A DNA stretch of 32,000 nt, from NCBI GenBank assembly GCA_030614005.1, contig JAUWKS010000009.1:1-32000 (forward strand). The letters run 5' to 3'. The notes below the pieces were generated by a model. The model saw only the letters and a list, made by a program, of their open reading frames with translations, searched no databases and had not been told where the DNA came from. The DNA comes from Candidatus Heimdallarchaeota archaeon (GTDB lineage Archaea; Asgardarchaeota; Heimdallarchaeia; JABLTI01). Numbering within the stretch: the stretch's first letter is position 1; every line of letters begins with the position of its first letter. Positions 1 through 15,471 of this stretch are shown piece after piece. The position numbers and the translations under genes were made by a program.

Positions 1-2
1 AA

Positions 3-1157
3 GCTTTTGGAGAATATTTTGGTGGTGCTTTTGGTTGGCTCTTATGGACTGGTTATTTAGCTTCTTGTTCATTATATGCTTATACTTTTGGTTCCTTCTT
101 CGCACACATGGTTCTCAATGAACATGCGTCAGCGTTAGTTGTTGATATAGTTTCAGGTGTTTTTGCTGCGACTTTAATTGCTCTTGCAACGATTATTAAT
201 TTGGTTGGTGTAAAAGAAACTGGAAAATCTCAGAACATTATTGTTTTAATAAAAGTAATAATATTGATCGGTTTTGTAGCAATAACCATACCTGCGGCAA
301 TAAAAAATGCTCCAACAAATTTAACTCCCTTTTTTGCTGATGCAGAAAGAAATCCGCTTGATGTTATGACTGGATTAGCGATGGCTGTTGTTGGCACATC
401 AATATTATTTGTTGCTTTTGAGGGGATGGAATTGATTCCCAATGCTTCCGAAGAGATTCAAAACCCAGAAAAAAACATTCCTCGCTCTATCTATGGCACA
501 GTAATAATTGCTACTGTTATCTATCTCTTAGTTGCTTTTACAGCATTAGGTGGTACTGATTATACGATTTTTGCTGGTGATCCCGAAAAAGCTGAATATG
601 CTTTAGCTATCGCTGCAACTCCCATTTTAGGTCAAGCTGGATTCATAATTATCACTCTCGGTGCTTTATTTTCAACTGCGAGTGCATTTAATGCTTCTCT
701 CTATGGCTCTTCTCGTATGACTTATGTTATGGCTCGAGATGGCATTTTCCCCAGATTCTTCAAAACTGTTTCAAAGAAAGGAAGAGTTCCCTATATTAGC
801 ATTTTATCCATAAGTGGATTAACATTGATCTTTACACTTGCATTAGACCTTAGACAAATTGCTAATCTTGCGAGTTCGATATTTTTGTTATTGTTTGCAA
901 TTATATCATTATCAAGTTTAATTCTCCGCAAGAAAATAAAAGCAAACTTTATAGTACCTCTTGTGGGATTTTTACTTACTACAGCTCTTTTCGGAATATT
1001 TCTTTGGAACTTGATTAATCAAGTTATCAGTGAAGTTTCAGTGGGCAATTTTACCGAATCATTTGTAACTATAATTCTCCTGCCGTTCTTGATTATTGCT
1101 ACGTCAATTGGTAGTTTTATTACAATTAAAGCTCAAAAGAACAAAGTGCAAAATTAA
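3..1157 (+). CDS. APC-family amino acid permease, 5'-truncated by the window edge
   Basis: The frame is open from position 3 (AFGEYFGGAFGWLLW...), so the track start at 108 is internal. It has many TM helices and the APC motifs FVAFEGMELIPNASEEIQNPEKNIPRS and SRMTYVMARDGIFP. Confidence 0.9.
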   Translation, partial: AFGEYFGGAFGWLLWTGYLASCSLYAYTFGSFFAHMVLNEHASALVVDIVSGVFAATLIALATIINLVGVKETGKSQNIIVLIKVIILIGFVAITIPAAIKNAPTNLTPFFADAERNPLDVMTGLAMAVVGTSILFVAFEGMELIPNASEEIQNPEKNIPRSIYGTVIIATVIYLLVAFTALGGTDYTIFAGDPEKAEYALAIAATPILGQAGFIIITLGALFSTASAFNASLYGSSRMTYVMARDGIFPRFFKTVSKKGRVPYISILSISGLTLIFTLALDLRQIANLASSIFLLLFAIISLSSLILRKKIKANFIVPLVGFLLTTALFGIFLWNLINQVISEVSVGNFTESFVTIILLPFLIIATSIGSFITIKAQKNKVQN

Positions 1158-1175
1158 TTTCTTTCCAGGTGAATC

Positions 1176-2252
1176 TTGTTGTCTCCTAAAAACAATGAAA
1201 AGAAAAATCCTTTACCGAGGAATTATCACATTTTGCGCGTCATTCTATCTGATGCTGATGCACGAACCATTGGTTTTGAAAGGAATCCTGATATGATTCC
1301 AACAATTCTTAAATCCAATTTAACGGAGATTTTAATTCGCTTTTTACAAGATGAATCAAAGAGACTCGTTCTCCTAACAAAATATGCAAAAGAATTAGCT
1401 ACTACAGATTTGAGAACTAGACAATTACATGAAACAAGAGAAGTAGTATTCAGTTTGCGTGAAACAGATAAAACATCTGATGATGCATTAGATTTTTTAC
1501 AAGAAAAACTAACACTCCTACAACAAGAGCGTGTAGATCACGATAAGTATATTTTAGATATGTTAGACGCTTTAGACCAAATAACCTCTACAGAAACGTT
1601 GCTTGAAAATATTGCCTCCTTTGTTAAAAATTTCACCTTCATTAATACTGATAATTGGGAAGACGATTTAGATTATTTCAGAACGCGATTTCTTTTACAG
1701 CGCAAGCAAGAGGAAGATGATCAGCGTTTGAAAGATGAATTCATCCCTGTTGAAGATACTATTCAAAAATCAAAAGAGGGCGAACCTCAACAAATCCGAC
1801 AAGCAACAGCGATAGAATATTTCTTCATTGCAATTCATAAGAAATATTATACGAAATTAAAACACTTGATTCAAGAATATAATCAGATAAAATTAGTACA
1901 ACATCCCGACTCAAGTGTCTCTCTCGAGGAGAAATCCGAGGAAGAGCTCATGGAATTGATTGCGCAACAGGAAAAAGAAAGTTTTGCAGTAGGAAAGAAG
2001 ATGTATACTTTGAAACGAGAGCAAGGTATTTTGACTTTGAAAACATATGAACTCGTTCAAACATTGAAATCAAGATTACTTAACATTACAGGTTCAATTG
2101 CTTCCAGGCGTTTTATGAAAGCTGCTCTAAATGATTTGCTTGATATTGTTAATGATTCTGAAACTGTTTTTGAAATTAAAATGGAAAAAATAACCAAAGA
2201 TTTGAAACGGCTCCTTCGTATTGTTAGAAAAGAACCTTCTGAAGGAAAATGA
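1176..2252 (+). CDS. Hypothetical all-helical/coiled-coil protein
   Basis: 358-codon ORF with a TTG start (the true start may be internal). It is rich in E/K/L/Q with heptad-like spacing, has no TM segment and shows no recognised catalytic motif. Confidence 0.7.
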   Translation: MLSPKNNEKKNPLPRNYHILRVILSDADARTIGFERNPDMIPTILKSNLTEILIRFLQDESKRLVLLTKYAKELATTDLRTRQLHETREVVFSLRETDKTSDDALDFLQEKLTLLQQERVDHDKYILDMLDALDQITSTETLLENIASFVKNFTFINTDNWEDDLDYFRTRFLLQRKQEEDDQRLKDEFIPVEDTIQKSKEGEPQQIRQATAIEYFFIAIHKKYYTKLKHLIQEYNQIKLVQHPDSSVSLEEKSEEELMELIAQQEKESFAVGKKMYTLKREQGILTLKTYELVQTLKSRLLNITGSIASRRFMKAALNDLLDIVNDSETVFEIKMEKITKDLKRLLRIVRKEPSEGK

Positions 2253-2371
2253 TCCAGTTGTTAGCATTGATTACAAAAATATTTTTCTTTTAAAAAATTA
2301 TTTTTTCTTTTTAATTTCAATTACATAGTTTTAAAAGACTGAAGAATGTGCTGTTGAAACAGTGAAAAATC

Positions 2372-3943
2372 ATGACTAAATTTTTGAAATTCTCTACTGG
2401 CGATAAAATTCCTGCTTCTGATAAGATTTTAGAAGATATTCCACTCGTCGGGGAGATGTCTTTTAACGAATTTGAAACCTCCAAAGAGGGAATTAAAGGT
2501 AAACCAATCAGTTGTTCTAATTGTGGTGCTGTACTAACCGACATCAAAAATGTCGAAACAAGTAACAAAGTTGGCACTTTTTTCAAATGTCTGTTCTGTG
2601 CAACAGTAAACGTAATTGATCCAAAGGATTTACCTACTAATATTGATATAAACATAGATTGGTATTTGCCTCCCGATACAACCAAAGGTGATTTTGGGAA
2701 AGGATTACACAAGGGTAATTCTTTAATCGCTGCATTAGATGTATCTGGCTCCATGCATAGAGCAAGACTTGAGGGAGTAAAACAGAGTTTAATTTCAACT
2801 CTAAAAGCTTATTCAATATCAAAACCAGACTCAATTTTTGGTATGGTGACTTTTGAGAGTGCAATAAGAATTTACTCTGCAGATGGTGAAGTTGTAGAGC
2901 AATTATCTGGTGATATACTCTATAATGTGAAAGCAATTGAGAAAAAGGTTGCTGGAAATAGTTGGGTAAAGAACCAATTGCCCAAAATGACTATGAAAGC
3001 TGTTGCCAAAGATTGGCAAAGAACAATACAAAAAATGGTCTCCCTTGGATCGACTGCACTTGGTGCAGCAGTTGTTGCAGCAAGAATCATGTCTTTAGCT
3101 GCTGGAACTGGGCGCGTTCTTCTTTTAACTGACGGAATGGCAAATGAGGGAATTGGTAGTCTTTCTGGAGCAAGTCCAGAAGGAAAGAAGTTTTACAAAT
3201 CAATAGCTCAAGAACTGAAAAAGAATGGTGTCATTTTAGATATTGTAGGCATTGCAGGACAAGGATCATTAGAGCTAAAAACGCTGGCACAAATGCCAGA
3301 AATAACTGGAGGAGATTTGTTCTATGCTGACCTTTCTGAACTTTCAGATAGCTTCTCAATGATTGCTGGAGATACACTTATCGGAAGAAATGCTCGAATC
3401 AAAGTTATCGTTCCAGAAGAACTTGAACTAACTAATTTGAGTGGTGCTGGAGCACATATTACCCGACTCAAAAGCGGAGAAGATATTTCCCTTGGGGGAC
3501 TTACTAAGTCTCGCTCAATAGCTTTTGAGTTTAAACCCAAGAGGAAAGTGAAAGATCGCAAAAAAGTTCCAGTGCAAGTACAAATTCGCTACAAAGACGA
3601 AGATGACAATGAACGTATTAGAATTGTAGAACACGAACTTGAAGTTTCAGAAATCAAAGAGGAACTTGAGAAAAACCTTGATGCTGATTTAATTGCTGGT
3701 TATACTGTGCAAAGAGCTGCACAAGTAATGCAAAAAGATCGAAAGAAAAGCAAGGAAATGATGAAAGATATGCGTTTAACACTTTCTCGTGTTGCACCAC
3801 AAGCCGCTGAAGCACAAGCTTATCTCGAAGAAGAGATGGAAGATCTCGATGAATTAATCGAGATGGAAGAAGAAGGTAAAGCTATGGCCGGTGATAGAGT
3901 GCAATCAAGCTCTTATCGTATGGCTAAAAAGCGAAAGAGATAA
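2372..3943 (+). CDS. Sec23/Sec24-like Zn-finger + vWA (trunk) + beta-sandwich + helical domain protein
   Basis: Zn finger CSNCGAVL...FKCLFCATVN; vWA with DVSGS, GSTALG and GRVLLLTDGMANEGIGSL; beta-sandwich-like GRNARIKVIVPEELELTNLSG and VQVQIRYKDEDDNERIRIVEHELEV; helical C-terminus starting NLDADLIAGYTVQRAA. Confidence 0.75.
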   Translation: MTKFLKFSTGDKIPASDKILEDIPLVGEMSFNEFETSKEGIKGKPISCSNCGAVLTDIKNVETSNKVGTFFKCLFCATVNVIDPKDLPTNIDINIDWYLPPDTTKGDFGKGLHKGNSLIAALDVSGSMHRARLEGVKQSLISTLKAYSISKPDSIFGMVTFESAIRIYSADGEVVEQLSGDILYNVKAIEKKVAGNSWVKNQLPKMTMKAVAKDWQRTIQKMVSLGSTALGAAVVAARIMSLAAGTGRVLLLTDGMANEGIGSLSGASPEGKKFYKSIAQELKKNGVILDIVGIAGQGSLELKTLAQMPEITGGDLFYADLSELSDSFSMIAGDTLIGRNARIKVIVPEELELTNLSGAGAHITRLKSGEDISLGGLTKSRSIAFEFKPKRKVKDRKKVPVQVQIRYKDEDDNERIRIVEHELEVSEIKEELEKNLDADLIAGYTVQRAAQVMQKDRKKSKEMMKDMRLTLSRVAPQAAEAQAYLEEEMEDLDELIEMEEEGKAMAGDRVQSSSYRMAKKRKR

Positions 3944-3956
3944 TCAAAATTGAAAT

Positions 3957-3989
3957 GAGGATATGTATTTAAATATCCTCTTTTTTTTT
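3957..3989 (+). terminator. Hairpin + T-tract after the vWA gene
   Basis: GAGGATAT (3957-3964) pairs with ATATCCTC (3973-3980) around an 8-nt loop, followed directly by T9. It lies between convergent genes. Confidence 0.6.
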
Positions 3990-4033
3990 AAATTTACTAC
4001 TCATTTTTTTCTGGATGTTCACTGTTATATTGA

Positions 4034-5836
4034 TTATTTAATAATTCGATTTTTTCGAGTGATCCACAAACCAGCGCCCAGAAGTCCAAACATAATTACA
4101 ATAAAACTGAAGGACAAGGAAATAACATAGCTATTGGGACCTTCAGGAAGTGAGTAGCTGATATCGAAACCAGCTTGAGCCATATGATACTTGGCAAGCT
4201 CAATATTATACTCATACGGGATCAAAGAATGATTATAGCCAACAGCAACTCGAGGACAACCAGTTGTTGCTGGTACAGCAAGACCTTTGAAAATTTCATT
4301 AGTGATTATTTGTCTGGGTACCATATGACTAATTGCTTTTCGAATGTGTTTAGCAGACTCAACACCAGCTATTGGACAGAGTACTCCAGTACCAAGATAG
4401 GGATGTTCCATATTGATAGCTATTTCTGAAGCTCCAGGGTCATCAACCAAGGTATAGGCAACATTGGGAAGAGCAAGTTCAACAAGTCGTGGTGAAAATT
4501 GGGCATCAACCATATCTATTGCTTCTGCTGAAAGTGCAGCTAATGCATTTTCTATTCTGTCAAAGAATTCGAAGTAGATATCAGTAAAACCCGGGTCAGC
4601 ACCAAGCCAGTCAGTAAAGTGTGGATTTGCTTCTAAGTGAATGACACTATTTGTAGCATTATAATCAGCTAGCATGTAAGGACCGGCACCAAACATCTTT
4701 TCGGGGTGATTGGTAGTCCAGTTTGCAGCAGTGGATTGGTGATCGGCTGGAGCAATTGCACCCCAAATATGTTCAGGGATTAGATTGAGAGTTAAATTGC
4801 TATCTTGGAAAACATAAGATTGATTGAAGGTAATTGAAAATGCTTTATTATTTATTTTAGTAATAGAATCATTATCCCAGTATTGGATATTATGAGAATA
4901 TTCCATTCCTCCTAAATCAGGTGTAACTGCTAATTGATAATTGTAAATAATGTCATCTGTGGTTAAATCAACTCCATCAGCCCATACAGCACCCTCTTTG
5001 ATGATAACAGTATAAGTAATTCCGTCAATACTGCTGACTGATTCTGCAAGCCAAGGACTATACCCATTGTCTAATGCAGGATTTCTTTGAAGTAAACCGT
5101 TGTAGATCTGGTGTAACCATTGAGCATCATAATAAAACTTAATGGTATAAGGGTGGAAATCTTCAAAGTCAGCTGGAGTGGCATAGTGAAATTCAGTTTC
5201 ACCTAGCATAGTCATATTAAAAAATGGATAATGGTCACCAGCCCAAAGTAACCCTTCAAAATTTCTCACATTGGGATCATGTGGAAAGCAAGATAATGGA
5301 TAAGTAGTGCTTATCTGAGGCAGGTCTTCGTAGAGCAGTGATTGAATTTTACCAACGAAGTTAATTCTATCAGTTGAAGTAAATGAGGATGTATAGCTGT
5401 TAATAGCATTGTCCATTTCAGGATTGTTGTATTGATAGAAATTATCACCATTGGGGGTAATAGAAGGACTATCATATAAACCAGTAGGATCCCAATCAAA
5501 GCCCCAACTCCAGCTAATGAAAAAAAGATCATACCCGCCTTTGGAATATTCGGGAATAGGATACGGACCAGGGTATCCCCAGGTTCGAGGACTGATTTGC
5601 GCCCAAACAGTATGATCAAAAACATCAATGCCAATGCCAATTTTTGGTAACTGTTCTACCATAACTGATGCCACAGTAGTTATCCATTGATGATATGTAC
5701 TCGGTACTAAAATACTAATATAAAAAAATGGTTCAGGATTTCCATTCTCTCCGGAAGCAACCTGTTGAATAGGTATAAGAAGAAGGTGCATAATAATCAC
5801 AAAAGCTAATTTCTTCTTCCAAAGATACGTACGCAT
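4034..5836 (-). CDS. ABC transporter substrate-binding protein, family 5 (oligopeptide/dipeptide-type), membrane anchored
   Basis: N-terminal signal-like segment; SBP_5 features PWLAESVSSIDGITYT, WADGVDLTTDDIIY, GAGPYML and IRKAISHMVPR; C-terminal TM followed by a basic tail (TRKNRIIK). Confidence 0.85.
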   Translation of the reverse strand: MRTYLWKKKLAFVIIMHLLLIPIQQVASGENGNPEPFFYISILVPSTYHQWITTVASVMVEQLPKIGIGIDVFDHTVWAQISPRTWGYPGPYPIPEYSKGGYDLFFISWSWGFDWDPTGLYDSPSITPNGDNFYQYNNPEMDNAINSYTSSFTSTDRINFVGKIQSLLYEDLPQISTTYPLSCFPHDPNVRNFEGLLWAGDHYPFFNMTMLGETEFHYATPADFEDFHPYTIKFYYDAQWLHQIYNGLLQRNPALDNGYSPWLAESVSSIDGITYTVIIKEGAVWADGVDLTTDDIIYNYQLAVTPDLGGMEYSHNIQYWDNDSITKINNKAFSITFNQSYVFQDSNLTLNLIPEHIWGAIAPADHQSTAANWTTNHPEKMFGAGPYMLADYNATNSVIHLEANPHFTDWLGADPGFTDIYFEFFDRIENALAALSAEAIDMVDAQFSPRLVELALPNVAYTLVDDPGASEIAINMEHPYLGTGVLCPIAGVESAKHIRKAISHMVPRQIITNEIFKGLAVPATTGCPRVAVGYNHSLIPYEYNIELAKYHMAQAGFDISYSLPEGPNSYVISLSFSFIVIMFGLLGAGLWITRKNRIIK

Positions 5837-6004
5837 GATTCAACCATTCCTTTTTTTAAGATTATTATTCCAACAATGATTGAAATACTTTATTCACACC
5901 ATGTTTCTTTGAGTGTTTTGCTATCATAGGTAATTCTAATTTTCCACAAGTTGGTGTGGAACGGAAGCTCTTATCATAATTGTTAAGAAAAAGGTCTACG
6001 GTTC

Positions 6005-7282
6005 TTATCCCTGAATATCCTTAGGGAAGAAATCCTCGAGAGTTTTTTGCGTTCTATATATTTTGTAAGTTTTGCTTACATTTAACCATCGTTCTAAAGG
6101 TAGAGCAAGCCGTTTCTTCAATTCGACAAAAGCATTATCCATTGTATCGAATTTCATTGGTGGGTGCTTCAAAGCTTCTTTAGCAATTTCTCTAAACCGC
6201 CAGACTCCCATTGGAACCCAGTCACGATCAACTTCCATAAATACAAAAGCACCCGATTGTCTATTTATTTTCATTAAATATTCCAATACAGGTAAACGAG
6301 TGCAATAGTAAGCACCACAAATTACATCTGCGTATTTCTTTCGCCCTTTCCAAGTTTCCCAATCTGTTTCAGGGTTACCTAAAGGTGAGATACGCCAATA
6401 TTCTAATGCTTCAAACATCCAACCACTTGGATACAATAAAATCTGAACATTATTTCCAAGTGCTTTATGTCCATAAAGTTGAAAATCATTAATCCAATTT
6501 TTGTTTAGAATTTGCTTCCAATATCTTTTCCCTAATATATCATCTACAGCAGTTATAGACCATGTCGTTGGAACCAATTTTCTTCTCTTTTTCACACCAA
6601 ATAATCCGGCAGATAATAGTCTAGTAATTTGTCTTTGAGGGATTTTATCGTCGTAGAGATTTAATATCCCTCCAGTTGCTTTTAGATCTGTATCTCCAAC
6701 AACTTTATCCACTGGTTTTGGTACTTTTGGATTTTCAGTTATTCTAGCACTTTTCAATATCCCTGAAGGACCTGAAGGGGCTGTTCTAGGAGAAAAAACA
6801 ATATCTAATTTCGGACGTTTTATGAACGACATTTCAGTATCAATTGGTTTACCTGACATAACTAATTCTTGCGTGAGGGAGAGTATTTTTCCGGGATCTT
6901 TCGCAGATTTTACACTAGTAGCTGCTTTGCCACGAACAAGAGCTGTTCTGTAACCAATGATCTCTTCCATTGATTTTTCTATCCAAAGATCCTCTGCATC
7001 ATAAATGGATGTATCTTGTGATGCTAAAGGTGGAACCAATGGCCCAATGGATACTTTTGGATAGCCATATTCTCCCACAAAAAAACCCGGTGGGGAAGCA
7101 CCAAAGAATTCTGTTTTAGAAAAGGTTTTTTGGATTTCTGCTATGGATTTAGCTTTAGCTAAAATCGGGCACAAACTTTTGCCACAGAGTTTTCTAAAGC
7201 CTTTGCATTTTTGGCACAAATTACGATTAATCTCGGAGGGAGAGGGTCTAAGGGTGAGATTTACTGAAGACATTATTATCAC
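6005..7282 (-). CDS. nreA: Nre family DNA repair protein (NreA)
   Basis: N-terminal CQKCKGFRKLCGKSLCP zinc motif; FFGASPPGFFVGEYGYPKV; LVPTTWSITAVD; GAYYCTRLPVLE; VPMGVWRFRE; C-terminal PIP box QKTLEDFF. An alternative ATG lies at 7273. Confidence 0.9.
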   Translation of the reverse strand: MIIMSSVNLTLRPSPSEINRNLCQKCKGFRKLCGKSLCPILAKAKSIAEIQKTFSKTEFFGASPPGFFVGEYGYPKVSIGPLVPPLASQDTSIYDAEDLWIEKSMEEIIGYRTALVRGKAATSVKSAKDPGKILSLTQELVMSGKPIDTEMSFIKRPKLDIVFSPRTAPSGPSGILKSARITENPKVPKPVDKVVGDTDLKATGGILNLYDDKIPQRQITRLLSAGLFGVKKRRKLVPTTWSITAVDDILGKRYWKQILNKNWINDFQLYGHKALGNNVQILLYPSGWMFEALEYWRISPLGNPETDWETWKGRKKYADVICGAYYCTRLPVLEYLMKINRQSGAFVFMEVDRDWVPMGVWRFREIAKEALKHPPMKFDTMDNAFVELKKRLALPLERWLNVSKTYKIYRTQKTLEDFFPKDIQG

Positions 7283-7297
7283 TAATTTTTTTCTAAA

Positions 7298-8038
7298 TTA
7301 TGCATCAAACTCATTGTATTGTTGTGCTTCATCTTCCCCCAAATCCTCAAGTGATCCAAGAGCATACTCAGGTAGTTCCTCTTGTTTCAATTTTTCTCGT
7401 TCTTTTAGAAGACGCTCTACTTCGTCTTCTTCTGGTGCTTTTTTCCTATTAACATATAGTACTATGATTATTATAAAAACCATTAACCCAGTGATACTGA
7501 TTAAACCATAAATTACTGTATCTAGCCAAATCCCTGCAAAAACATCAATATGCCAAGTAAATGTTAATGGTGTTATAGAAGCTCCCGCATACATAACTAA
7601 AATCCAATTATCAGTATAAGGTGCTTTTACTTGAAATGTACCACTCCGTTTATTATCAAATGGTATATCATCCATCATAAATAGCGGATCATATAAATAG
7701 AGCAAATTTTCACTTGGAATTCTATTTACAGCTTGAGTTAAATTATCGCTCTCAACCCAATTTTCAAAGCTAGCAGAGTCAATAATAAAAACTAGGAAAG
7801 GTGAAGAAAAAACATCCGCAGGAGTTACTTCCCAATCACCGCTTATTGCTTGCCCTTCCTCAACATGGACTGTTACATTGTGGAAGCCATATGGGGATAC
7901 GATGATTTGTTCATCTGCACTGATCGCTGACTTTTCTATTATCATACCAAATCCTTGATGCGCACTTAATTGAGAGAACAAATTCATAATTAGTATCAAT
8001 GCAGCTACTATTTTGACTCGAGACTTCAAGGAATACAT
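7298..8038 (-). CDS. Type I membrane protein with a GOLD/p24-like beta-sandwich ectodomain
   Basis: Signal-like N-terminus; beta-rich ISGDWEV...FLVFIID...SGTFQVKAPYTDNWILVM; one TM (TVIYGLISITGLMVFIIIIVLYV); charged/acidic tail. A GGTGG SD-like site lies upstream. The CDS is well supported, the GOLD call is tentative. Confidence 0.5.
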   Translation of the reverse strand: MYSLKSRVKIVAALILIMNLFSQLSAHQGFGMIIEKSAISADEQIIVSPYGFHNVTVHVEEGQAISGDWEVTPADVFSSPFLVFIIDSASFENWVESDNLTQAVNRIPSENLLYLYDPLFMMDDIPFDNKRSGTFQVKAPYTDNWILVMYAGASITPLTFTWHIDVFAGIWLDTVIYGLISITGLMVFIIIIVLYVNRKKAPEEDEVERLLKEREKLKQEELPEYALGSLEDLGEDEAQQYNEFDA

Positions 8039-8107
8039 TATACAACCACCTATGCTGTTGTTTTAATAATCAGAAAGTTTATTCAAGAATTTTTCTAGTT
8101 CATTAGT

Positions 8108-8143
8108 AAAGAAGAGAAAGAAGCGAGGGTGAGGTTCCCTCGC
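8108..8143 (-). other. GC-rich hairpin in the long intergenic region (terminator-like on the minus strand)
   Basis: GCGAGGG (8123-8129) pairs with CCCTCGC (8137-8143) around a 7-nt loop. On the minus strand it is followed by TTCTTTCTCTTCTTT. Confidence 0.45.
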
Positions 8144-8677
8144 AAAATGAATGCTGTTTTCTCTTACTTCAAAAAGCAATTGAAGATTTATGATGTCTGG
8201 AACAATTGCAAGCATTACTTTACTCAAATTCCCAAGTGTGTTGCAGTAGTTGTTAATGCATGAATTTTTCCATTGTTCTCTTGTCTTGCTTTTTTCTGGA
8301 TGGTTGTTATTTACTTCTTGAGTAGCACTATATGCTCTTCTAAGTTTCTTCTGCCTATCCGAAGATGATTTTATTCTATACTTTCTAGTTTATCTATATC
8401 AACTATAAAGGTTTACATTGTTTTTATTTTCAAGAAAGAATAGTACTTTCCTCAGACTGAAAAACAGAAAAAAATATCATCGTTTTAGTCATCTTTTTTA
8501 ATAATATATCGCTCAATGAATGTATATCTACTTAGAAAATAATTTATTATCGAAACAATTGTTAGTCTTTAAAAGAACGGTTGTATATAATCAACAAGAA
8601 GATTGGAAGAATCGAAAAGGCTGATATTCTTCGATTGTAGAATAACTATATAAAATTATTATAATCGAGAGATTACA

Positions 8678-10630
8678 ATGAGCAAAAAAACCGCCAAGAG
8701 GCCAGGCATAGCTGTAAAAAAGGAACCTTTGATAGATGTAAATATCAAAACAACTGCTGAAATTCCCGTTCCAACTAGATTAATTGATCAAGTTCTAGGT
8801 CAAGAAAGATCCGTTAATTTAGTAAAGAAAGCTGCAATTCAGAGAAGAAATGTTCTATTAATTGGTGAACCTGGTACAGGAAAAAGTATGTTAGGTACTG
8901 CAATGGCTGAACTTCTACCACGTGAAGATTTAGAAGATATTTTATGTGTACCAAATAGAAAAGACAGTAACACTCCAAAAATTGTCACTGTTGGTTCTGG
9001 AGAAGGCCGACGTATAGTTGATCGTTATAATGAAAAAGCATCAAAAGGTTCAAACCTAAGGATGATTCTAAGTTTAATCATACCTTTAGCTATTATGCTC
9101 TATGTTATCTTTGTTCCCGTACAAAGTCCATATCAAAGACCACAACTTGTGTTAATGGGTCTTTTTGTTTCATTCTTTGCATTCATTGCTATGAGTCAAT
9201 TAAGAAGTAGGTCAGAGAATCTTGTGCCTAAACTTCTTGTTGATACAAGTCAGCAAACTCATGCACCATATAATGATGCAACAGGAGCACATGCTGGTTC
9301 ATTATTAGGTGATGTTCGTCACGATCCCTTCCAAAGTGGTGGTTTGGGAACTCCTGCGCACGAACGTGTTGAGGCTGGTTTAATACACAAATCTCACAAA
9401 GGAGTACTTTATTGTGATGAAATTGCTACACTTGGCATGCGAACCCAACAACAACTTCTAACTGCTATGCAAGAAAGAGAATTCCAGATTACTGGTCAGA
9501 GTGAATTAAGCAGTGGAGCAATGGTTCGCACTGATCCTGTGCCTTGTGATTTTATTCTTATTGCAGCAGGTAACCTTCCTACTATGGAACATATGCATCC
9601 TGCCTTACGATCAAGAATTCGTGGGTATGGCTATGAAATTTATATGGATGAAGTGATGCCAGACACTCTTGAAAACCGAAATAAAATCGTGCGTTTCGTT
9701 GCTCAAGAAGTTTCTAAAGATGGTCGTATTCCCCACTTCTCAATAGATGCTGTTGAAGAAATCATTCGTGAATTCCGTAGAAGAGCCAATAAGAAAAATA
9801 GTCTTACTTTAATGTTTAGAGAACTTGGTGGTCTAGTACGTGCTGCAGGAGATATTGCTAGAGAAGATAACGATTCAGTAACTACTATGAAACATGTTCA
9901 TCGAGCAAAAACACTAGCTAGTTCCTTAGAACAACAAATAGCTGAAAAATACATTGCTAGAAGACGAGATTACCAAATTATACTTAATGAAGGTGCTCTT
10001 ATTGGACGAGTAAATGGTTTAGCTGTTCTTGGATCTAGAAGTGGTATAATAACAAATGTTGAAGCAGAAGTAACTCCGGCATTAAGCAATCAAGAGGGTA
10101 AGATTATTGCTACTGGTAAACTTGGTGAAATCGCTCAAGAATCTGTCTTGAATGTTAGTGCAATAATCAAGAAATATACCGGAATAGATATTTCTCAACA
10201 TGACGTTCACGTTCAATTCTTACAAACCTACTCAGGTGTAGAAGGTGATAGTGCAAGCGTTTCAGTTGCTACTGCGGTTGTTTCTGCACTTACGGATATA
10301 CCTGTTCGTCAAGATGTTGCAATGACTGGTTCACTATCCGTTCGTGGTGAAGTTTTACCAATTGGTGGTGCAACCTTCAAAATAGAAGCAGCTATAGAAG
10401 CAGGTATAAAAACTGTTATCATACCAATTGGCAACGTAAGTGATGTTGTGCTTGATGATGCACAAAGAAAACAGGTAAACATTATTCCTGTTAGCCGATT
10501 CTGGGAAGTGCTTGATATAGCATTGACTGGTGATGATCAAGGTATTGTTGATAAATTCAAAGCAAGTATTAGTGAATACGAACGCAAGCTTGAAGAGAAA
10601 TTAAAAGAAATAGTGAAAGGAAAAGCATAA
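8678..10630 (+). CDS. lonB: Archaeal ATP-dependent protease LonB
   Basis: Walker A GEPGTGKS; two TM helices inserted in the AAA domain; GDVRHDPFQSGGLGTPAH; Walker B-like LYCDEI; catalytic Ser region VEGDSAS; PIGGATFKIEAA (catalytic Lys). Confidence 0.97.
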   Translation: MSKKTAKRPGIAVKKEPLIDVNIKTTAEIPVPTRLIDQVLGQERSVNLVKKAAIQRRNVLLIGEPGTGKSMLGTAMAELLPREDLEDILCVPNRKDSNTPKIVTVGSGEGRRIVDRYNEKASKGSNLRMILSLIIPLAIMLYVIFVPVQSPYQRPQLVLMGLFVSFFAFIAMSQLRSRSENLVPKLLVDTSQQTHAPYNDATGAHAGSLLGDVRHDPFQSGGLGTPAHERVEAGLIHKSHKGVLYCDEIATLGMRTQQQLLTAMQEREFQITGQSELSSGAMVRTDPVPCDFILIAAGNLPTMEHMHPALRSRIRGYGYEIYMDEVMPDTLENRNKIVRFVAQEVSKDGRIPHFSIDAVEEIIREFRRRANKKNSLTLMFRELGGLVRAAGDIAREDNDSVTTMKHVHRAKTLASSLEQQIAEKYIARRRDYQIILNEGALIGRVNGLAVLGSRSGIITNVEAEVTPALSNQEGKIIATGKLGEIAQESVLNVSAIIKKYTGIDISQHDVHVQFLQTYSGVEGDSASVSVATAVVSALTDIPVRQDVAMTGSLSVRGEVLPIGGATFKIEAAIEAGIKTVIIPIGNVSDVVLDDAQRKQVNIIPVSRFWEVLDIALTGDDQGIVDKFKASISEYERKLEEKLKEIVKGKA

Positions 10631-10666
10631 ATTCCCAAATTCATGTTTCCATCTTAACAATAATAT

Positions 10667-10699
10667 AATGCGGATTCCCGCATTCTCTTTTTTCCTTTT
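10667..10699 (+). terminator. Hairpin + pyrimidine tract after lonB
   Basis: AATGCGG pairs with CCGCATT around the loop ATTC, followed by CTCTTTTTTCCTTTT. Confidence 0.55.
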
Positions 10700-10766
10700 A
10701 TTCTATGTTTTTAACCGTTTAACTAATTAACAAAGAAGCAAACTATTTTCTATAGGTATGAGGTAG

Positions 10767-11792
10767 ATGAGTAAATATCGTGAAGCGTTGTATTATACAC
10801 AACAAAAGGATTCCAAAGTAAAATGCAACCTTTGTCCACATAATTGCATTATTTCTCCTAACCATAAAGGCAAGTGTAATGTGCGATTAAATGTGGATGG
10901 AAAGCTATTCACGTTGAACTATGGCTTAGCTACTTCCGGAACTCGAGATCCAATTGAGAAAAAACCTCTCTATCATTTTCAACCTGGAACTTACTCTTAC
11001 AGTTTCGGAACTGTAGGTTGTAATTTATTCTGTCAGTTCTGTCAAAATTGGCATATCGCTCGTGCAGATCCGGAAAATAGCAAGTATGGTTTGGATTATC
11101 TTTCTCCAGATGATGCTGTTAAAACAGCAAAGAAATCTGGTTGCCCATCTGTAGCCTATACTTACAATGAACCAATTGTTTGGTATGAATGGGTGTTAGA
11201 TACTGCGAAGAAAATGAAATCAAATGGTTTGAAAAATGTGTTAGTTACAAACGGGTATATCCAACAAGAACCATTAGAAGAGCTTTTACCATATATAGAT
11301 GCAGCAAATGTAGACTTGAAAGGAGATGCTAAATTCTACAAAGAATTATGTAAAGTCTCGCATCGAGAAGCTGTACTGCGAACTTGCAAGTTAATGGTAC
11401 AAAATAACGTTCATCTCGAGATAACTAATCTAATTGTCACTTCCAGTAATGATTCCAAAGAGCAGATTCAAGACTTAATCGATTTTGTAAAGAATGAACT
11501 GGGACCTGAGATTCCTTTACATTTCTCTCGTTATTATCCTCAGTATAAACTTGATTTACCTGCTACTCCAGTCGAGACATTATTAATGGCTCGAGAAATG
11601 GCAATTAAGTCTGGATTGAAATATGTTTATCTAGGAAATGTGCGAGATGCAGAACATAGTAATACGTACTGTAGAACTTGTGGCGAGCTCTTAATTCGAA
11701 GAACAGGTTATTCTGTTCGTTTTCCAAATATCACCAAAGATAAAAAATGTAAAAAATGCTTTGATTCTAATTCGATTATTTGGCATACTTAG
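10767..11792 (+). CDS. amrS: AmmeMemoRadiSam system radical SAM enzyme
   Basis: N-terminal CNLCPHNC...GKCNVR; DPIEKKPLYHFQPG; radical SAM motif GCNLFCQFCQNWHI; AYTYNEP; PLHFSRYYPQY; YVYLGNV; C-terminal Cys pairs. Confidence 0.93.
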   Translation: MSKYREALYYTQQKDSKVKCNLCPHNCIISPNHKGKCNVRLNVDGKLFTLNYGLATSGTRDPIEKKPLYHFQPGTYSYSFGTVGCNLFCQFCQNWHIARADPENSKYGLDYLSPDDAVKTAKKSGCPSVAYTYNEPIVWYEWVLDTAKKMKSNGLKNVLVTNGYIQQEPLEELLPYIDAANVDLKGDAKFYKELCKVSHREAVLRTCKLMVQNNVHLEITNLIVTSSNDSKEQIQDLIDFVKNELGPEIPLHFSRYYPQYKLDLPATPVETLLMAREMAIKSGLKYVYLGNVRDAEHSNTYCRTCGELLIRRTGYSVRFPNITKDKKCKKCFDSNSIIWHT

Positions 11793-11931
11793 AAATTCAC
11801 TAAAATGCTTTTGCTTCCTTTGCTGTTCAAAATTTTATCTTTCTATTTTGTATGGTTTAAATAGGTGAATGAACGGTATATATTTACCACGATGGTAGTA
11901 ACTAAAAGACATTTAACGGTGGAAAAGATAA

Positions 11932-13173
11932 ATGACAAACAAGTTCTGTGTTTATTGTAGTCAAGAATTAGAAGAAAACAACAAGTTCTGTTACAAGTGC
12001 GGAGCAACGGTAGGTAATCAGAAAGTTATTCCCCCTGCTCAAAAACGAGACGACAGATTACATAGCAATAGTCTATCAGCTCCAGTAAAAAAAGAGAAAA
12101 AACAACATTCTACAAGAAATTTGAAACCATTATTACTTATCCCAATAATACTATTTTCAATAGCATTGCCTATTATAATTCTAACCTCCTTAGGAGCAGC
12201 AAGAACTCCACTTGGAACATTGGATTATGATATTAGTTCAGTGGAATATTTGGATGTAGAATTAGTTATCGATAATAGTATTGGATTGGTTGAAATAACG
12301 TATGATGATTCGATGGATGCTCTCTTTGAAGCAACAGTAGAAGTTCGCGGTGGAATTAAAGCTTCTATTGAAGATGCGAAAAACTTCCAGCATGAGGTGA
12401 TAAACAATAAAACAGTGATCACCTTTGATTCCGATGATGCTATCATTCCATTTTGGAGTTTCAGATCTATAATTCACGATCTTTACATATCTTTGAATCC
12501 AGATGCAATAATTGATTTTGCGGTCCATTCTTCTACAGGAAGTATAAGTTTAGATTTAGATGGTATCGATGATCTAATAATAAGAAATGTGCAATTATCA
12601 TCATCAACAGGTTCAGTGGATTTCTACTCTGGCAATGTTATCAATACTACAATGGACGATATTGATTTAGCAATTAGCACTGGTAGAATATTGTTTGATT
12701 TTGATGATGCATTGGGAACAACTGTAAACGAAATGACCTTCGATGGTTCCACAGGTAGTATATCAGCATTTTTAGGAGAAGCAATGAACATTAATTCTGC
12801 TGATGTAATTGTATCAACTTCAACAGGTTCAATAGAATTAACTTTTGAAGACATAATCTTTAATGCAGATACAAATTGGGATGTTGAAACATCAACAGGA
12901 TCAATTTCAATAGACTTCATTCAAAACATCATCCTTCCAATAAATTTCACAGCAGTATTTGATGTAGAAACATCTACTGGTAGTATTTCTGTTGCAGGAG
13001 AAATTGCAAGTGATTTAGGCATTGAGATTACAGCCACTACAGGTACAGGTAGCATTAATATTCCTGGTGGACTCAGTCACTACGCTTCCACAGACTATTA
13101 CTTGAAAAACAATCAATTCTCTTTTACACTTTTGACCTCTACTGGTAGTATAACTGCAAACATTGAATACTAA
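11932..13173 (+). CDS. Zinc-ribbon + TM + DUF4097-like beta-strand repeat (adhesin-like) protein
   Basis: FCVYCSQ...FCYKCGA zinc ribbon, one TM (LLLIPIILFSIALPIIILTSLGA), then nine copies of a (S/T)TG(S/R)(I/V) repeat. Confidence 0.75.
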   Translation: MTNKFCVYCSQELEENNKFCYKCGATVGNQKVIPPAQKRDDRLHSNSLSAPVKKEKKQHSTRNLKPLLLIPIILFSIALPIIILTSLGAARTPLGTLDYDISSVEYLDVELVIDNSIGLVEITYDDSMDALFEATVEVRGGIKASIEDAKNFQHEVINNKTVITFDSDDAIIPFWSFRSIIHDLYISLNPDAIIDFAVHSSTGSISLDLDGIDDLIIRNVQLSSSTGSVDFYSGNVINTTMDDIDLAISTGRILFDFDDALGTTVNEMTFDGSTGSISAFLGEAMNINSADVIVSTSTGSIELTFEDIIFNADTNWDVETSTGSISIDFIQNIILPINFTAVFDVETSTGSISVAGEIASDLGIEITATTGTGSINIPGGLSHYASTDYYLKNNQFSFTLLTSTGSITANIEY

Positions 13174-13178
13174 AAAAT

Positions 13179-13236
13179 GAAGTAGTTTCTTACTCCTTCC
13201 ATATTTGAAAACTTGGAGGAGTAACAAAAACTCTTC
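13179..13236. other. Long imperfect intergenic hairpin
   Basis: GAAG-T-AGTTT-C-TTACTCCTTCCA pairs with TGGAGGAGTAA-CAA-AAACT-CTTC around a 12-nt loop. Confidence 0.5.
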
Positions 13237-13358
13237 CAAATGAGGGATATTACTATAGCATTTTTATAAGAAATATGTAAGTCCCTCCTTCATTTTCAAC
13301 CATTTAGAAATGAATATATTTGTAGACTCAAATAAAATTATTAGTTTGAGGTAATGTA

Positions 13359-14384
13359 ATGAAAAACACAAGAAGAAATAAACAAATACTCATTTCTGCA
13401 TTTGCATTATTCACAATCTTGCTTATTGTTTTAGCATCAAGTAATCAAATGGTTAATGCAAGAAAAATAACTAATATCATTAGCTTAAACAATTCTGGAT
13501 TTTCAATGATTGATACAGACTTCTTCGAAATCAATACAGATGGAGATCACAAACTAACATTGCTTGAATATTCACATTTCAATAGACCTATCTATCCTAA
13601 TTATACTCAAGTAAATTTAGCTGTCGTTTTAGAAGGAGAAGAATATGATATATCTGATATTGATATTCATTATTCTCAAGACAGAATCAACTGGACCACA
13701 ATAGCTTTTACTCAAATCAAAACTCTATCAGAGAATTCTTCTTTGTTTGAAGTAACTATTGGTCCCTTCTCTGAGTCAGGTATGTATTTCATAAAAATTA
13801 ATGCTACAAGAGGATCACTTGAGCATGCTACCATTTTCTTTTCTATACAAGTCGAAGAAATTACTGGTCTTGTTTTCCTTGATTTTGATCATCAAATAGT
13901 TGAATTAGAAAATAAAACAAGTCTGGTCAATCTTCAAGTGAGCGTTCTTGGTAATAATTTGATTAATGACTCTGTAAGAGTAGTAGTTGATCAAATTGAT
14001 TACAATTCTACCACAATGAAACTCATAAATGGGTCAACGAATAGATATAATGCCACTATGGGTTCAATAATGCACTGGGAAGAATACGTTCATGTAACCT
14101 TTATTGGTAGCACTACTCTAGGAATAGATTACAATAATTCTAACTTTTTGTTCCATAAAGCTTATCCAAAATTTGAAGAACCATTTCTCACTTCACTTCT
14201 CCCAGCAATTGTTGTTGGCTTGCTAGTTGTTGCTTCAATGTCCACTATTTTTATTATGGCTAAACGACGTGCGCCCAAAAAATTTGACATCGAAACTTCT
14301 GATGATAAAGAATTGAAAGCACAACTAAGAAAGAATATGAAAAAGGAAAGGAGAAAGAAAAAAGAAAAAGATGATTTATTCTAA
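13359..14384 (+). CDS. Hypothetical surface protein (signal peptide, Ig-like beta-rich region, C-terminal TM, basic tail)
   Basis: N-terminal basic+hydrophobic signal; many N-x-S/T sequons; TM LLPAIVVGLLVVASMSTIFIMA; K/R-rich tail; GAGGT SD-like site upstream. Confidence 0.75.
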   Translation: MKNTRRNKQILISAFALFTILLIVLASSNQMVNARKITNIISLNNSGFSMIDTDFFEINTDGDHKLTLLEYSHFNRPIYPNYTQVNLAVVLEGEEYDISDIDIHYSQDRINWTTIAFTQIKTLSENSSLFEVTIGPFSESGMYFIKINATRGSLEHATIFFSIQVEEITGLVFLDFDHQIVELENKTSLVNLQVSVLGNNLINDSVRVVVDQIDYNSTTMKLINGSTNRYNATMGSIMHWEEYVHVTFIGSTTLGIDYNNSNFLFHKAYPKFEEPFLTSLLPAIVVGLLVVASMSTIFIMAKRRAPKKFDIETSDDKELKAQLRKNMKKERRKKKEKDDLF

Positions 14385-14389
14385 TATTT

Positions 14390-15406
14390 TCATTTCATTT
14401 TTTCTGACCGAAGATCAATTAGAGCTTCTGCTTCTGGACCAGTTCCAACAAAAGTTACAGGGACATTTGTCTCTTTTTCGATTTCTGCAATGAATTGGAG
14501 TGCTTCTTCTGTTAGTTTATCCGCAGAATTTGCTCCTGCAATTTCGGGAAACATTATATCCAATTTTGTTAAAGCTATTTGTGTTGCTCCATTAAGTCGA
14601 ACTGTTTTTCTAGCAATATCGAAATCGATTGGCGCGGATCTTCTTGCTCTGCCAGTTACTGTACCATGTTCTGTCCAACCCCTCTTCTCCATTTCTTCTT
14701 CAGAGAGAGTGCCAGGCATAGGGCCTTCACCAACTCGAGTCATAAAAGCTTTGAATACAATAATGACTTCGTCAACTTTTGTAGGACCAATACCAACATC
14801 AGAACAAATTTGAGGAGCGGATACATCTTTGCTGGTAACAAAAGGATAGGTTCCATGCCAGAGTGAGAGCATAGTTCCTTGAGTTCCTTCAAGAACGACA
14901 TTCTTTCCCGCTTCAATTGCTTCGTTTATCTCTTTGGAAACATCAGTTAAGTAAGGTTTTAGCTCAGGAATGTCTTTAGCTAATCTTAATGTTCTTCTCG
15001 CACGATCTTCGTTAGCTGGGCCACAACCTGTTCCTGTGCTGCCAATTTTATCTTTGAGATGCTTATCTGTTTGATCTTTTTCTTTGTGTTCTTTATCAAT
15101 TACTCCTGTCTGAAAATCAATACCAATTCGATCTTTGCAACCCGTTTCATTTATCTCTTTAAGGAAGATTTCCGGATCAACAAGTACACCAGCACCAACC
15201 AACAAACGTGATTTCTTACTTGTAAAACCACTTGGTATCATTCGCAGACCATACGTCTTCCCTTCAAAGACAACAGTATGTCCTGCATTTGTTCCTACAC
15301 CACCTCGAGCGATGATTGCTGGATCTTCAGCATAAGCAATATAGCTGATGATTTTTCCTTTACCTTCATCGCCCCAAAAGCCACCTACAATAATTGTCGT
15401 TGTCAT
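14390..15406 (-). CDS. purA: Adenylosuccinate synthetase (short archaeal type)
   Basis: GGFWGDEGKGK, ARGGVGTNAGHT, IGSTGTGCGPA, EGTQG, YPFVTS, EHGTVTGRARR and TKLDI motifs. The ATG at 15406 (MTTTIIVGG) fits the family N-terminus better than the track start at 15433. Confidence 0.97.
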   Translation of the reverse strand: MTTTIIVGGFWGDEGKGKIISYIAYAEDPAIIARGGVGTNAGHTVVFEGKTYGLRMIPSGFTSKKSRLLVGAGVLVDPEIFLKEINETGCKDRIGIDFQTGVIDKEHKEKDQTDKHLKDKIGSTGTGCGPANEDRARRTLRLAKDIPELKPYLTDVSKEINEAIEAGKNVVLEGTQGTMLSLWHGTYPFVTSKDVSAPQICSDVGIGPTKVDEVIIVFKAFMTRVGEGPMPGTLSEEEMEKRGWTEHGTVTGRARRSAPIDFDIARKTVRLNGATQIALTKLDIMFPEIAGANSADKLTEEALQFIAEIEKETNVPVTFVGTGPEAEALIDLRSEKMK

Positions 15407-15471
15407 GGTTCGTTCGTGTGAAAAATAATCCATAATAATTAAAGTCCTTTTGTTAACTTAAAGGTGATAAT

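Follow-up and report, generated by a model that had tools for sequence, protein, structure and literature searches.

A Sec23/24-like protein with an intact MIDAS and no gelsolin domain in a Heimdall-type Asgard archaeon, and its sequence relation to eukaryotic CPRas1-type proteins

In this study, we analyzed a gene for a Sec23/24-like protein carried by a 32,000-nucleotide stretch of DNA (hereafter the window: positions 1 to 32,000 of contig JAUWKS010000009.1, assembly GCA_030614005.1) from a Candidatus Heimdallarchaeota archaeon. The gene (2372..3943, + strand, ATG start, stop codon included) codes for a protein of 523 amino acids (aa), named P0001. P0001 keeps a complete MIDAS (metal ion-dependent adhesion site) in its vWA domain and is without the gelsolin domain that ends Sec23 and Sec24, the subunits of the inner coat of coat protein complex II (COPII) vesicles. 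In a predicted structure the rest of its body appears to be that of Sec23/24. By sequence, its nearest non-Asgard relatives are the eukaryotic CPRas1-type/zinc finger (ZnF)-vWA proteins, and Sec24, Sec23 and crenarchaeal ArnB are much more distant.

P0001 is an ordinary member of an already published family, and the core finding has been published as well: Asgard Sec23-like proteins, all without a gelsolin domain, return Sec23 in Foldseek searches and were read as COPII precursors (PMC11914678, Nat Commun 2025). These eukaryotic signature proteins (ESP) resemble P0001 in their beta-barrel strands, Zn finger, trunk and helical parts, which are placed as in Sec23; we saw no essential difference between them and P0001, which is another member, from a Heimdall-type metagenome-assembled genome (MAG). 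What is added here is the conservation of the MIDAS, the CPRas1-type relation, which is apparently new for this family as judged from sequence comparison, and lineage-specific clusters of Roadblock and GTPase genes. No mention of the MIDAS of the Asgard proteins, of the link to circularly permuted Ras (cpRAS) proteins or of Roadblock/GTPase clusters was found in the searchable literature.

Domain order, metal-site residues and fold of P0001

An earlier note, made from the sequence alone, had named a series of motifs in this open reading frame (ORF), all of which were located: the CxxC...CxxC finger (C48-x2-C51...C73-x2-C76), the DVSGS motif (D123-V-S-G-S127), the Thr of GSTALG (T228), the Asp of LTDG (D254) and the Y-x-D...R-I-R-I strand (Y407-K-D409...R414-I-R-I). 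In 25 relatives sharing 28-91% identity with P0001, the residues C48, C51, C73, C76, D123, S125, S127, T228, D254 and D409 show no variation, and Y407 hardly any. Because they are invariant across relatives of such a range, the Zn and MIDAS motifs are more than chance resemblances. The nine Zn and MIDAS positions were likewise kept in 32/32 Asgard-type representatives covering all these positions, drawn from a set of 39. The MIDAS is thus complete, with all five residues invariant in the 25 relatives. The earlier note had also described the MIDAS of eukaryotic Sec23/24 as degenerate. This stands for Sec24, whose yeast form keeps DVSQS but has F for the MIDAS Thr and G for the Asp, and whose human form Sec24A has DVSHN, with S and T at these two positions.

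Along the gene, the layout is as follows (all features on the + strand). The N-terminal beta-strands (residues 1-30, 2372..2461; E5-7, E12-14 and E25-30 in the model) pack with the beta-sandwich in the model, like the N-terminal strands of Sec23/24. The Zn ribbon (residues 45-81, 2504..2614), with its four Cys, occupies the position expected from the domain order and can be aligned with the zinc finger of Sec24C. The vWA "trunk" (residues 117-333, 2720..3370), made of strands and helices in the model, contains the MIDAS motif D123-V-S125-G-S127 (2738..2752), Thr228 (3053..3055) and Asp254 (in LLTDG, 3131..3133). It is followed by a Sec23-type beta-sandwich (residues 336-426, 3377..3649), ending in the Y407-x-D409...R-I-R-I strand, whose region aligns to Sec24C residues 351-527. 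The helical tail (residues 429-515, 3656..3916) comes next, and the protein closes on a polybasic C-terminus, R-M-A-K-K-R-K-R (residues 516-523, 3917..3940), read from the sequence. In the family alignment, the close clade keeps KKRKK-type ends, and most other clades have basic tails.

Pfam profiles supported part of this order. Sec23_trunk (PF04811) reached 43.2 bits over residues 122-320, for a cut-off of 27, and Sec23_BS (PF08033) 34.2 bits over residues 340-425 (positions 3-85 of 86), for a cut-off of 33.5; all 25 relatives match both. VWA (32.8 bits) and VWA_2 match P0001 as well. The two other profiles proposed by the earlier note fared less well: zf-Sec23_Sec24 (PF04810) gave 11.9 bits over residues 45-83, below its cut-off of 25, with 5/25 relatives reaching E <= 0.01, and Sec23_helical (PF04815) had no sequence match in P0001 (E <= 10) or in the 25 relatives. 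The helices of the model at residues 429-515 fall within the stretch superposed on Sec24/Sec23 (model range 1-523), where they appear to align structurally with the Sec24/Sec23 helical domain.

The AlphaFold2 model of P0001 (predicted local distance difference test, pLDDT, 86.8; predicted template modelling score, pTM, 0.85) shows the N-terminal strands, the Zn ribbon, an alpha/beta trunk (117-333), the beta-sandwich (336-426) and helices (429-515). In Foldseek searches with this model, 46 Sec23/Sec24 chains ranked first (E 1.7e-27 to 3e-19), followed by ArnAB (PDB 8s05, 6e-16) and then by a Catenulispora vWA protein. With VIA-align, run against 48,161 representatives, the best superpositions were with Sec24b (Z 27.0, 482/523 residues aligned, model 1-523) and Sec24c (25.6), ahead of ArnB (Z 24.7, 358 aligned) and Sec23a (Z 24.4, 478 aligned). 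Overall, the COPII structures (PDB 3eh1, 3eh2, 1m2v, 1m2o) share with P0001 both fold and domain order, with Z of 24-27 over 478-483 residues. A PDB search with the single sequence also found Sec24C (E 9e-5) and Sec23. The model thus suggests that P0001, from the N-terminal strands to the helical domain, is built as Sec23/24 are and ends at the point where their gelsolin domain starts. A homodimer prediction (residues 1-500, two copies) scored 0.00, which speaks neither for nor against dimerization.

P0001 has no gelsolin domain. It ends after the helical tail, and no Gelsolin (PF00626) match was found in it at E <= 10, nor in the 25 relatives. The Sec23/24-type order without gelsolin described by the earlier note was thereby borne out. 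P0001 therefore cannot carry the gelsolin-domain catalytic residue by which Sec23 acts as GTPase-activating protein (GAP) on Sar1 (PMC11914678). There is also no room for a gelsolin extension on the DNA, given the stop codon, a run of nine T (3981..3989, + strand, 38 nucleotides (nt) 3' of the stop) and a convergent gene that starts at 4034, 91 nt downstream of the stop. Elsewhere in the same genome, a separate ORF of 217 aa (C31:6643-7188) carries two gelsolin domains (49.9 and 36 bits); the gelsolin building block is thus present in this genome, unfused to the Sec23-like gene.

Relatives in Asgard archaea and eukaryotes

The gene for P0001 is genuine and belongs, in one copy, to an Asgard archaeon of Heimdall type. 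The window is archaeal, with a G+C content of ~35% and neighbour genes that include Nre, LonB and RtcB. In the 3.6-Mb, 90%-complete genome, both the trunk and the beta-sandwich profiles found a single copy, and there is therefore no Sec23/Sec24-type pair. A homologue search returned 45 proteins (E down to 0), all with PF04811 and nearly all with PF08033. Orthologues 67-91% identical are found in Heimdall-labelled MAGs (67-89% within species-representative genomes), and the relatives of 28-91% identity come from Heimdall-, Thor-, Hermod-, Jord/Frey-, Odin-, Borr- and Loki-labelled genomes. Among 200 genomes of the phylum, a match was present in 71; in the class to which the window belongs, only its own family has one. 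Among species-representative genomes, full-length relatives are found in Asgard-labelled MAGs, including Lokiarchaeum ossiferum, and in a few genomes under odd archaeal labels (Bathyarchaeia, Undinarchaeota). The next matches beyond them are partial, bacterial vWA segments at E ~1e-8. A search for fused or longer relatives of P0001 (917-2615 aa) found none, which is weak evidence.

Two observations concern unusual copies. First, some homologues (P0011, P0013, P0058, P0063 and the one at locus L044) come from MAGs labelled Bathyarchaeia, Zixibacteria, Armatimonadota or Eremiobacterota, and some of them are 74-75% identical to P0001. Such near-identical homologues are probably due to mis-binning or mislabelling. 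For those with bacterial labels (Zixibacteria, Armatimonadota, Eremiobacterota), the gene contexts of two distant ones gave no decision. Second, one genome of the same genus holds a second piece (G186:C84:20828-21058) that covers the first 77 residues only, at 68% identity, some 10 kb from the full-length gene. This piece may have arisen by duplication of a fragment, or be a remnant.

In order to look beyond the Asgard archaea, a profile was built from 25 Asgard sequences and scored against 1.84 billion representative proteins. Some 40 Asgard-type clusters came at E <= 1e-79, and after a step in score more than 100 longer, eukaryotic-type clusters followed at 200-245 bits, over profile positions ~24-525. 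Twenty of the eukaryotic-type clusters were looked up, and all ten that had an organism name were from eukaryotes: Diadema and Physella (both annotated "circularly permutated Ras protein 1-like"), Salpingoeca, Entamoeba, Pellita, Pyxidicula, two Anaeramoeba, Stentor and Chrysoparadoxa. With the same profile, Sec24 scored ~64 bits over ~410 residues, Sec23 ~32 bits, and ArnB ~34 bits over ~60 residues. P0001 alone matched the eukaryotic CPRas1-type proteins at E values from 1e-37 to 1e-20 (21-27% identity, residues ~43-500), and Sec24C at only 9e-5. The likeness to CPRas1 is therefore stronger than the earlier note, which had pointed to the C-terminal part of such proteins, supposed.

The CPRas1 family and its cpRAS-less ZnF-vWA members were described by Elias and Novotny in 2008 (PMC2430557); in eukaryotes a Ras-like domain is found fused to the ZnF-vWA module, and CPRas1 is present in Dictyostelium (PMC2430557). 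Like P0001, the CPRas1-type proteins have a four-Cys finger, a complete MIDAS and no gelsolin match. The four Cys and five MIDAS residues, DVSGS included, are kept in 107/110 eukaryotic-type representatives, 19 of which are without only the first CxxC in the alignment. Pfam matches to zf-Sec23_Sec24, the trunk and the beta-sandwich are weak in these proteins, and those examined with Pfam have no Gelsolin or Sec23_helical match; most of them end within ~30 residues of the helical tail. Unlike P0001, which is without a GTPase domain, they have extensions at the N-terminus or a Ras domain in circularly permuted form, and the Diadema protein has an N-terminal Ras domain. The eukaryotic proteins are little studied.

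The separation between the two groups is deep. In a quick IQ-TREE analysis (LG+C20; 90 rows, unrooted, no canonical Sec23/24), a single long branch of ~1.4 changes per site, with full support (SH-like approximate likelihood ratio test, SH-aLRT, 100), splits 45 Asgard from 45 eukaryotic-type rows; the base of the Asgard side is without resolution. Such a tree points to an old split between Asgard and eukaryotic-type proteins rather than to a recent transfer, and it gives no order of events.

Gene neighbourhoods and surroundings of the gene

We then considered the genes lying next to the Sec23-like gene. In Thorarchaeota, the order is a divergent Roadblock gene, followed by Sec23-like > Roadblock > Roadblock > small GTPase > Roadblock, at every locus whose flank was long enough (24/24 of those analyzed in detail); the only insertions lie after the second Roadblock gene, before the GTPase gene. 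In locus L023 (6740-11049) and ~35 Thorarchaeota loci (L055-L115), the first Roadblock protein has a LAMTOR5-like match and the second an MP1/LAMTOR3-like match, and the GTPase is of Arf/Ras type. The cluster looks like a Ragulator/Rag-like or MglA/MglB-like module placed beside the Sec23-like gene. No description of it was found in the searched literature; the GTPases of MK-D1 are generally outside operons with Roadblock genes (Tran et al., PMC10933270).

Other lineages have other arrangements. At seven Loki-type loci ("Promethearchaeota"; L026:6394-7065, L091, L094, L097, L102, L105 and L116), a small GTPase gene of another subfamily stands directly upstream on the same strand, and some of these loci have a second GTPase gene 4-6 kb downstream. 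In the genome under study, the order across contig C62 and the window is pyruvate:ferredoxin oxidoreductase genes, a Ras-like GTPase gene, Usp, an amino-acid permease gene, an ORF for a helical protein of 358 aa, and the Sec23-like gene; the genus retains this order. This Ras-like GTPase gene (C62:4824-5414, minus strand, Ras 184 bits) lies ~4.3 kb upstream (~5 kb centre to centre), as it does in the relative L015 and in 5/6 further loci of the genus. Window positions 1-127 are an exact repeat of the final 127 nt of C62 (7041-7167), and the two contigs therefore abut; the permease gene (window 3-1157) is split by this assembly break, and the gene order matches that of a 2.26-Mb contig of L015.

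Two candidate relations were rejected. The Ras-like GTPase gene ~4.3 kb upstream is not the orthologue of the Thor-cluster GTPase gene, since that orthologue is C63:7327-7890, in an unrelated neighbourhood. A conserved operon partner common to the whole family was also discarded, as neighbourhoods differ between Asgard lineages. The region around the C63 orthologue (C63:3095-7890, locus L041) also codes for a protein with a longin domain (Fuz_longin_1), for one of 552 aa whose N-terminal part is a Ras domain and for one of 493 aa without Pfam match, and may be a GTPase/longin regulatory locus.

Around the gene itself, a TATA-like TTTTAAAA (2329..2336, + strand), read from the sequence 36-43 nt 5' of the ATG within a 119-nt A/T-rich spacer, is a candidate promoter of its own for the Sec23-like gene, and the nine-T run, also a sequence reading, is predicted to be terminator-like. 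Because of the A/T-rich spacer, the T-run and the convergent gene, the Sec23-like gene looks monocistronic, with no C-terminal extension possible. An antisense ORF of 145 aa (window 2317-2754, - strand) overlaps its 5' part and is seen again at 12 related loci; most likely, it is the shadow of a conserved sense frame, not a gene. DNA of the Sec23-like gene is present in runs labelled marine sediment and cold-seep metagenomes; no run was listed with RNA for it.

Directly 5' lies the ORF for the 358-aa helical, coiled-coil-like protein (1176..2252, + strand), of no known family: it gave no Pfam match and no usable Atlas match. The ORF is also found directly upstream in L015 and in 5/6 further loci of the Heimdall genus, with 40-80% identity; it evolves much faster than its neighbours and is confined to this genus. 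Its AlphaFold model shows long helical hairpins (pLDDT 77, pTM 0.49), for which Foldseek gave no fold match at E <= 0.001. Further along the window, an ORF of 838 aa (21755-24271, + strand) has as sole match a weak one to Reprolysin_5 (M12 metallopeptidase), at 20 bits, below the cut-off.

Possible function and history of the family

The reading that we favour, by a small degree, is that P0001 serves as an adaptor that depends on its MIDAS and is possibly linked to a GTPase, and not as a GAP of the COPII type. The protein is most likely soluble and cytosolic, since its sequence lacks a long hydrophobic segment. Under this reading, D123, S125, S127, T228 and D254 would hold Mg2+ or Mn2+; as in other vWA domains with a MIDAS, an acidic residue from a partner protein would complete the coordination of the ion. 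The Zn ribbon, the beta-sandwich and the helical tail would form a rigid, Sec23/24-like body, and the basic C-terminus may contact a membrane or another acidic surface. The partner system would most likely be a small-GTPase module, in which Roadblock-type proteins, and not the adaptor itself, would regulate the GTPase. Taken together, the neighbourhoods and the eukaryotic Ras fusion are suggestive of a coupling to GTPases.

Several points weigh against this reading. At the Hermod, Jord/Frey, Odin, Borr and L. ossiferum loci, we found no GTPase gene within 6 kb and no Roadblock cluster. The GTPases found beside the gene in three lineages belong to different subfamilies. Each genome has 26-73 GTPase genes (at least 40 here, 73 in a Loki-type genome) and 10-13 Roadblock genes, and a GTPase gene within 5 kb is therefore expected by chance in about one lineage out of ten. 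The Thor region is syntenic as a whole, including SMC, ScpA and UppS, so that retention alone is no proof of coupling. In the present genome, a different contig holds the orthologue of the Thor-cluster GTPase (62% identity), and none of the genes immediately beside it is a Roadblock gene. Finally, co-precipitation of an Asgard Arf with three Sec23-like proteins of Asgard archaea was only weak in yeast, whatever the nucleotide state of the Arf (PMC11914678). Because GTPase genes are frequent, the Thor region is syntenic and the GTPase subfamilies differ, the neighbourhood evidence is graded here as suggestive.

A broader history can be put forward more tentatively. The Asgard Sec23/24-like proteins may be the prokaryotic counterparts of a separate lineage of CPRas1-type ZnF-vWA proteins, as old as LECA (the last eukaryotic common ancestor), which would have kept an ancestral state with a working MIDAS, no gelsolin domain and a small GTPase at its side. 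COPII Sec23/24 would be a derived paralogue branch, in which the MIDAS was lost and a gelsolin domain with its GAP function gained, and P0001 would act, in dependence on its MIDAS, as effector or scaffold for a small GTPase under Roadblock regulation. According to this scenario, the GTPase would be fused in cis in eukaryotes, and it would be held in the same cluster with Roadblock regulators in Thorarchaeota.

It is less likely that P0001 is a subunit of a proto-COPII inner coat, which an Arf/Sar-like GTPase would recruit to membranes and which would polymerize, bend the membrane or select cargo. The full Sec23/24 body seen in the model speaks for it, as do the polybasic C-terminus, the many Arf- and Ras-like GTPases of the genome and the published reading of the Asgard proteins as COPII precursors (PMC11914678). 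However, in the absence of a gelsolin domain, the catalytic residue and part of the Sar1 interface are gone; residues contacting Sar1 are missing from Asgard Sec23-like proteins, and their binding to Asgard Arf is not GTP-dependent (PMC11914678). P0001 is also a single-copy gene rather than one of a Sec23/Sec24 pair, by bit score the non-COPII proteins of CPRas1 type are about 4 times nearer to it than Sec24 is, and its intact MIDAS is a feature that COPII subunits have abandoned. The label "coat protein" given by the earlier note, coat formation itself and dimerization receive no support from the tests made here. Because the sequence is far closer to non-COPII ZnF-vWA proteins, the intermediate on the way to COPII that the note had envisaged is one of several possible histories.

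Just as improbable, in our opinion, is a signalling scaffold of ArnB type, in which phosphorylation of the helical tail would alter interactions, an ArnA-type ZnF being fused in cis, with no tie to a GTPase or to a membrane. Published work presents ArnB, with its vWA, beta-sandwich and helical parts and its occupied MIDAS, as an "ortholog of the Sec23/24 core motif" whose ZnF is supplied by ArnA, and notes related architectures in Heimdallarchaeota (PMC12852372). Structure 8s05 is the best match outside Sec23/24 in our comparisons (358/380 residues aligned), and the group formed by ArnB/ArnE (vWA2) of Sulfolobus and the Catenulispora vWA protein (PDB 8s05, 5a8j, 4fx5) resembles P0001 in having a MIDAS-bearing vWA domain, a beta-sandwich and a helical domain at the C-terminus (Z 21-25). 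Unlike P0001, ArnB has no fused Zn ribbon, as ArnA supplies the ZnF in trans; only 339-366 residues align in this group, and the sequence relation is marginal, with a profile score of 34 bits over ~60 residues against 64 bits over ~410 for Sec24 and more than 200 for the CPRas1 type. Moreover, ArnB acts in archaellum regulation with FHA and kinase partners, whereas no FHA or protein-kinase domain was seen by Pfam in the ten ORFs neighbouring P0001 in the window (3-15433), the nearest kinase-like ORF being ~24 kb away, and what other Asgard lineages conserve beside the gene are Roadblock and GTPase genes.

That P0001 is a generic prokaryotic metal-binding vWA protein of BatA/YfbK type, with a superficial likeness to Sec23, is very improbable: VWA and VWA_2 do match and bacterial vWA segments are the next-best non-Asgard prokaryotic hits, but P0001 scores 16.3 bits on the BatA model NF047508 (cut-off 380), the Sec23-specific beta-sandwich profile passes its cut-off, all 523 residues superpose on Sec24 in the model, full-length relatives are confined to Asgard-labelled MAGs and a few other archaeal labels, and Sec24/Sec23 are the better matches by both sequence and fold. 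The result by which the earlier note would have been refuted therefore did not occur.

The homologues of Sec23/24 are among the few Asgard proteins tied to the origins of vesicle coats, and they are usually discussed as an unfinished COPII. If the CPRas1-type proteins are their true eukaryotic counterpart, a third eukaryotic branch has to be added to the history of the COPII inner coat, and the function of the Asgard proteins would have to be sought in MIDAS-mediated binding and in Roadblock/GTPase signalling, not in GAP activity on Sar1. With a homologue in the cultured Ca. Lokiarchaeum ossiferum (CP104013.1) and CPRas1 in Dictyostelium, an amoeba widely used in the laboratory, this idea is directly testable.

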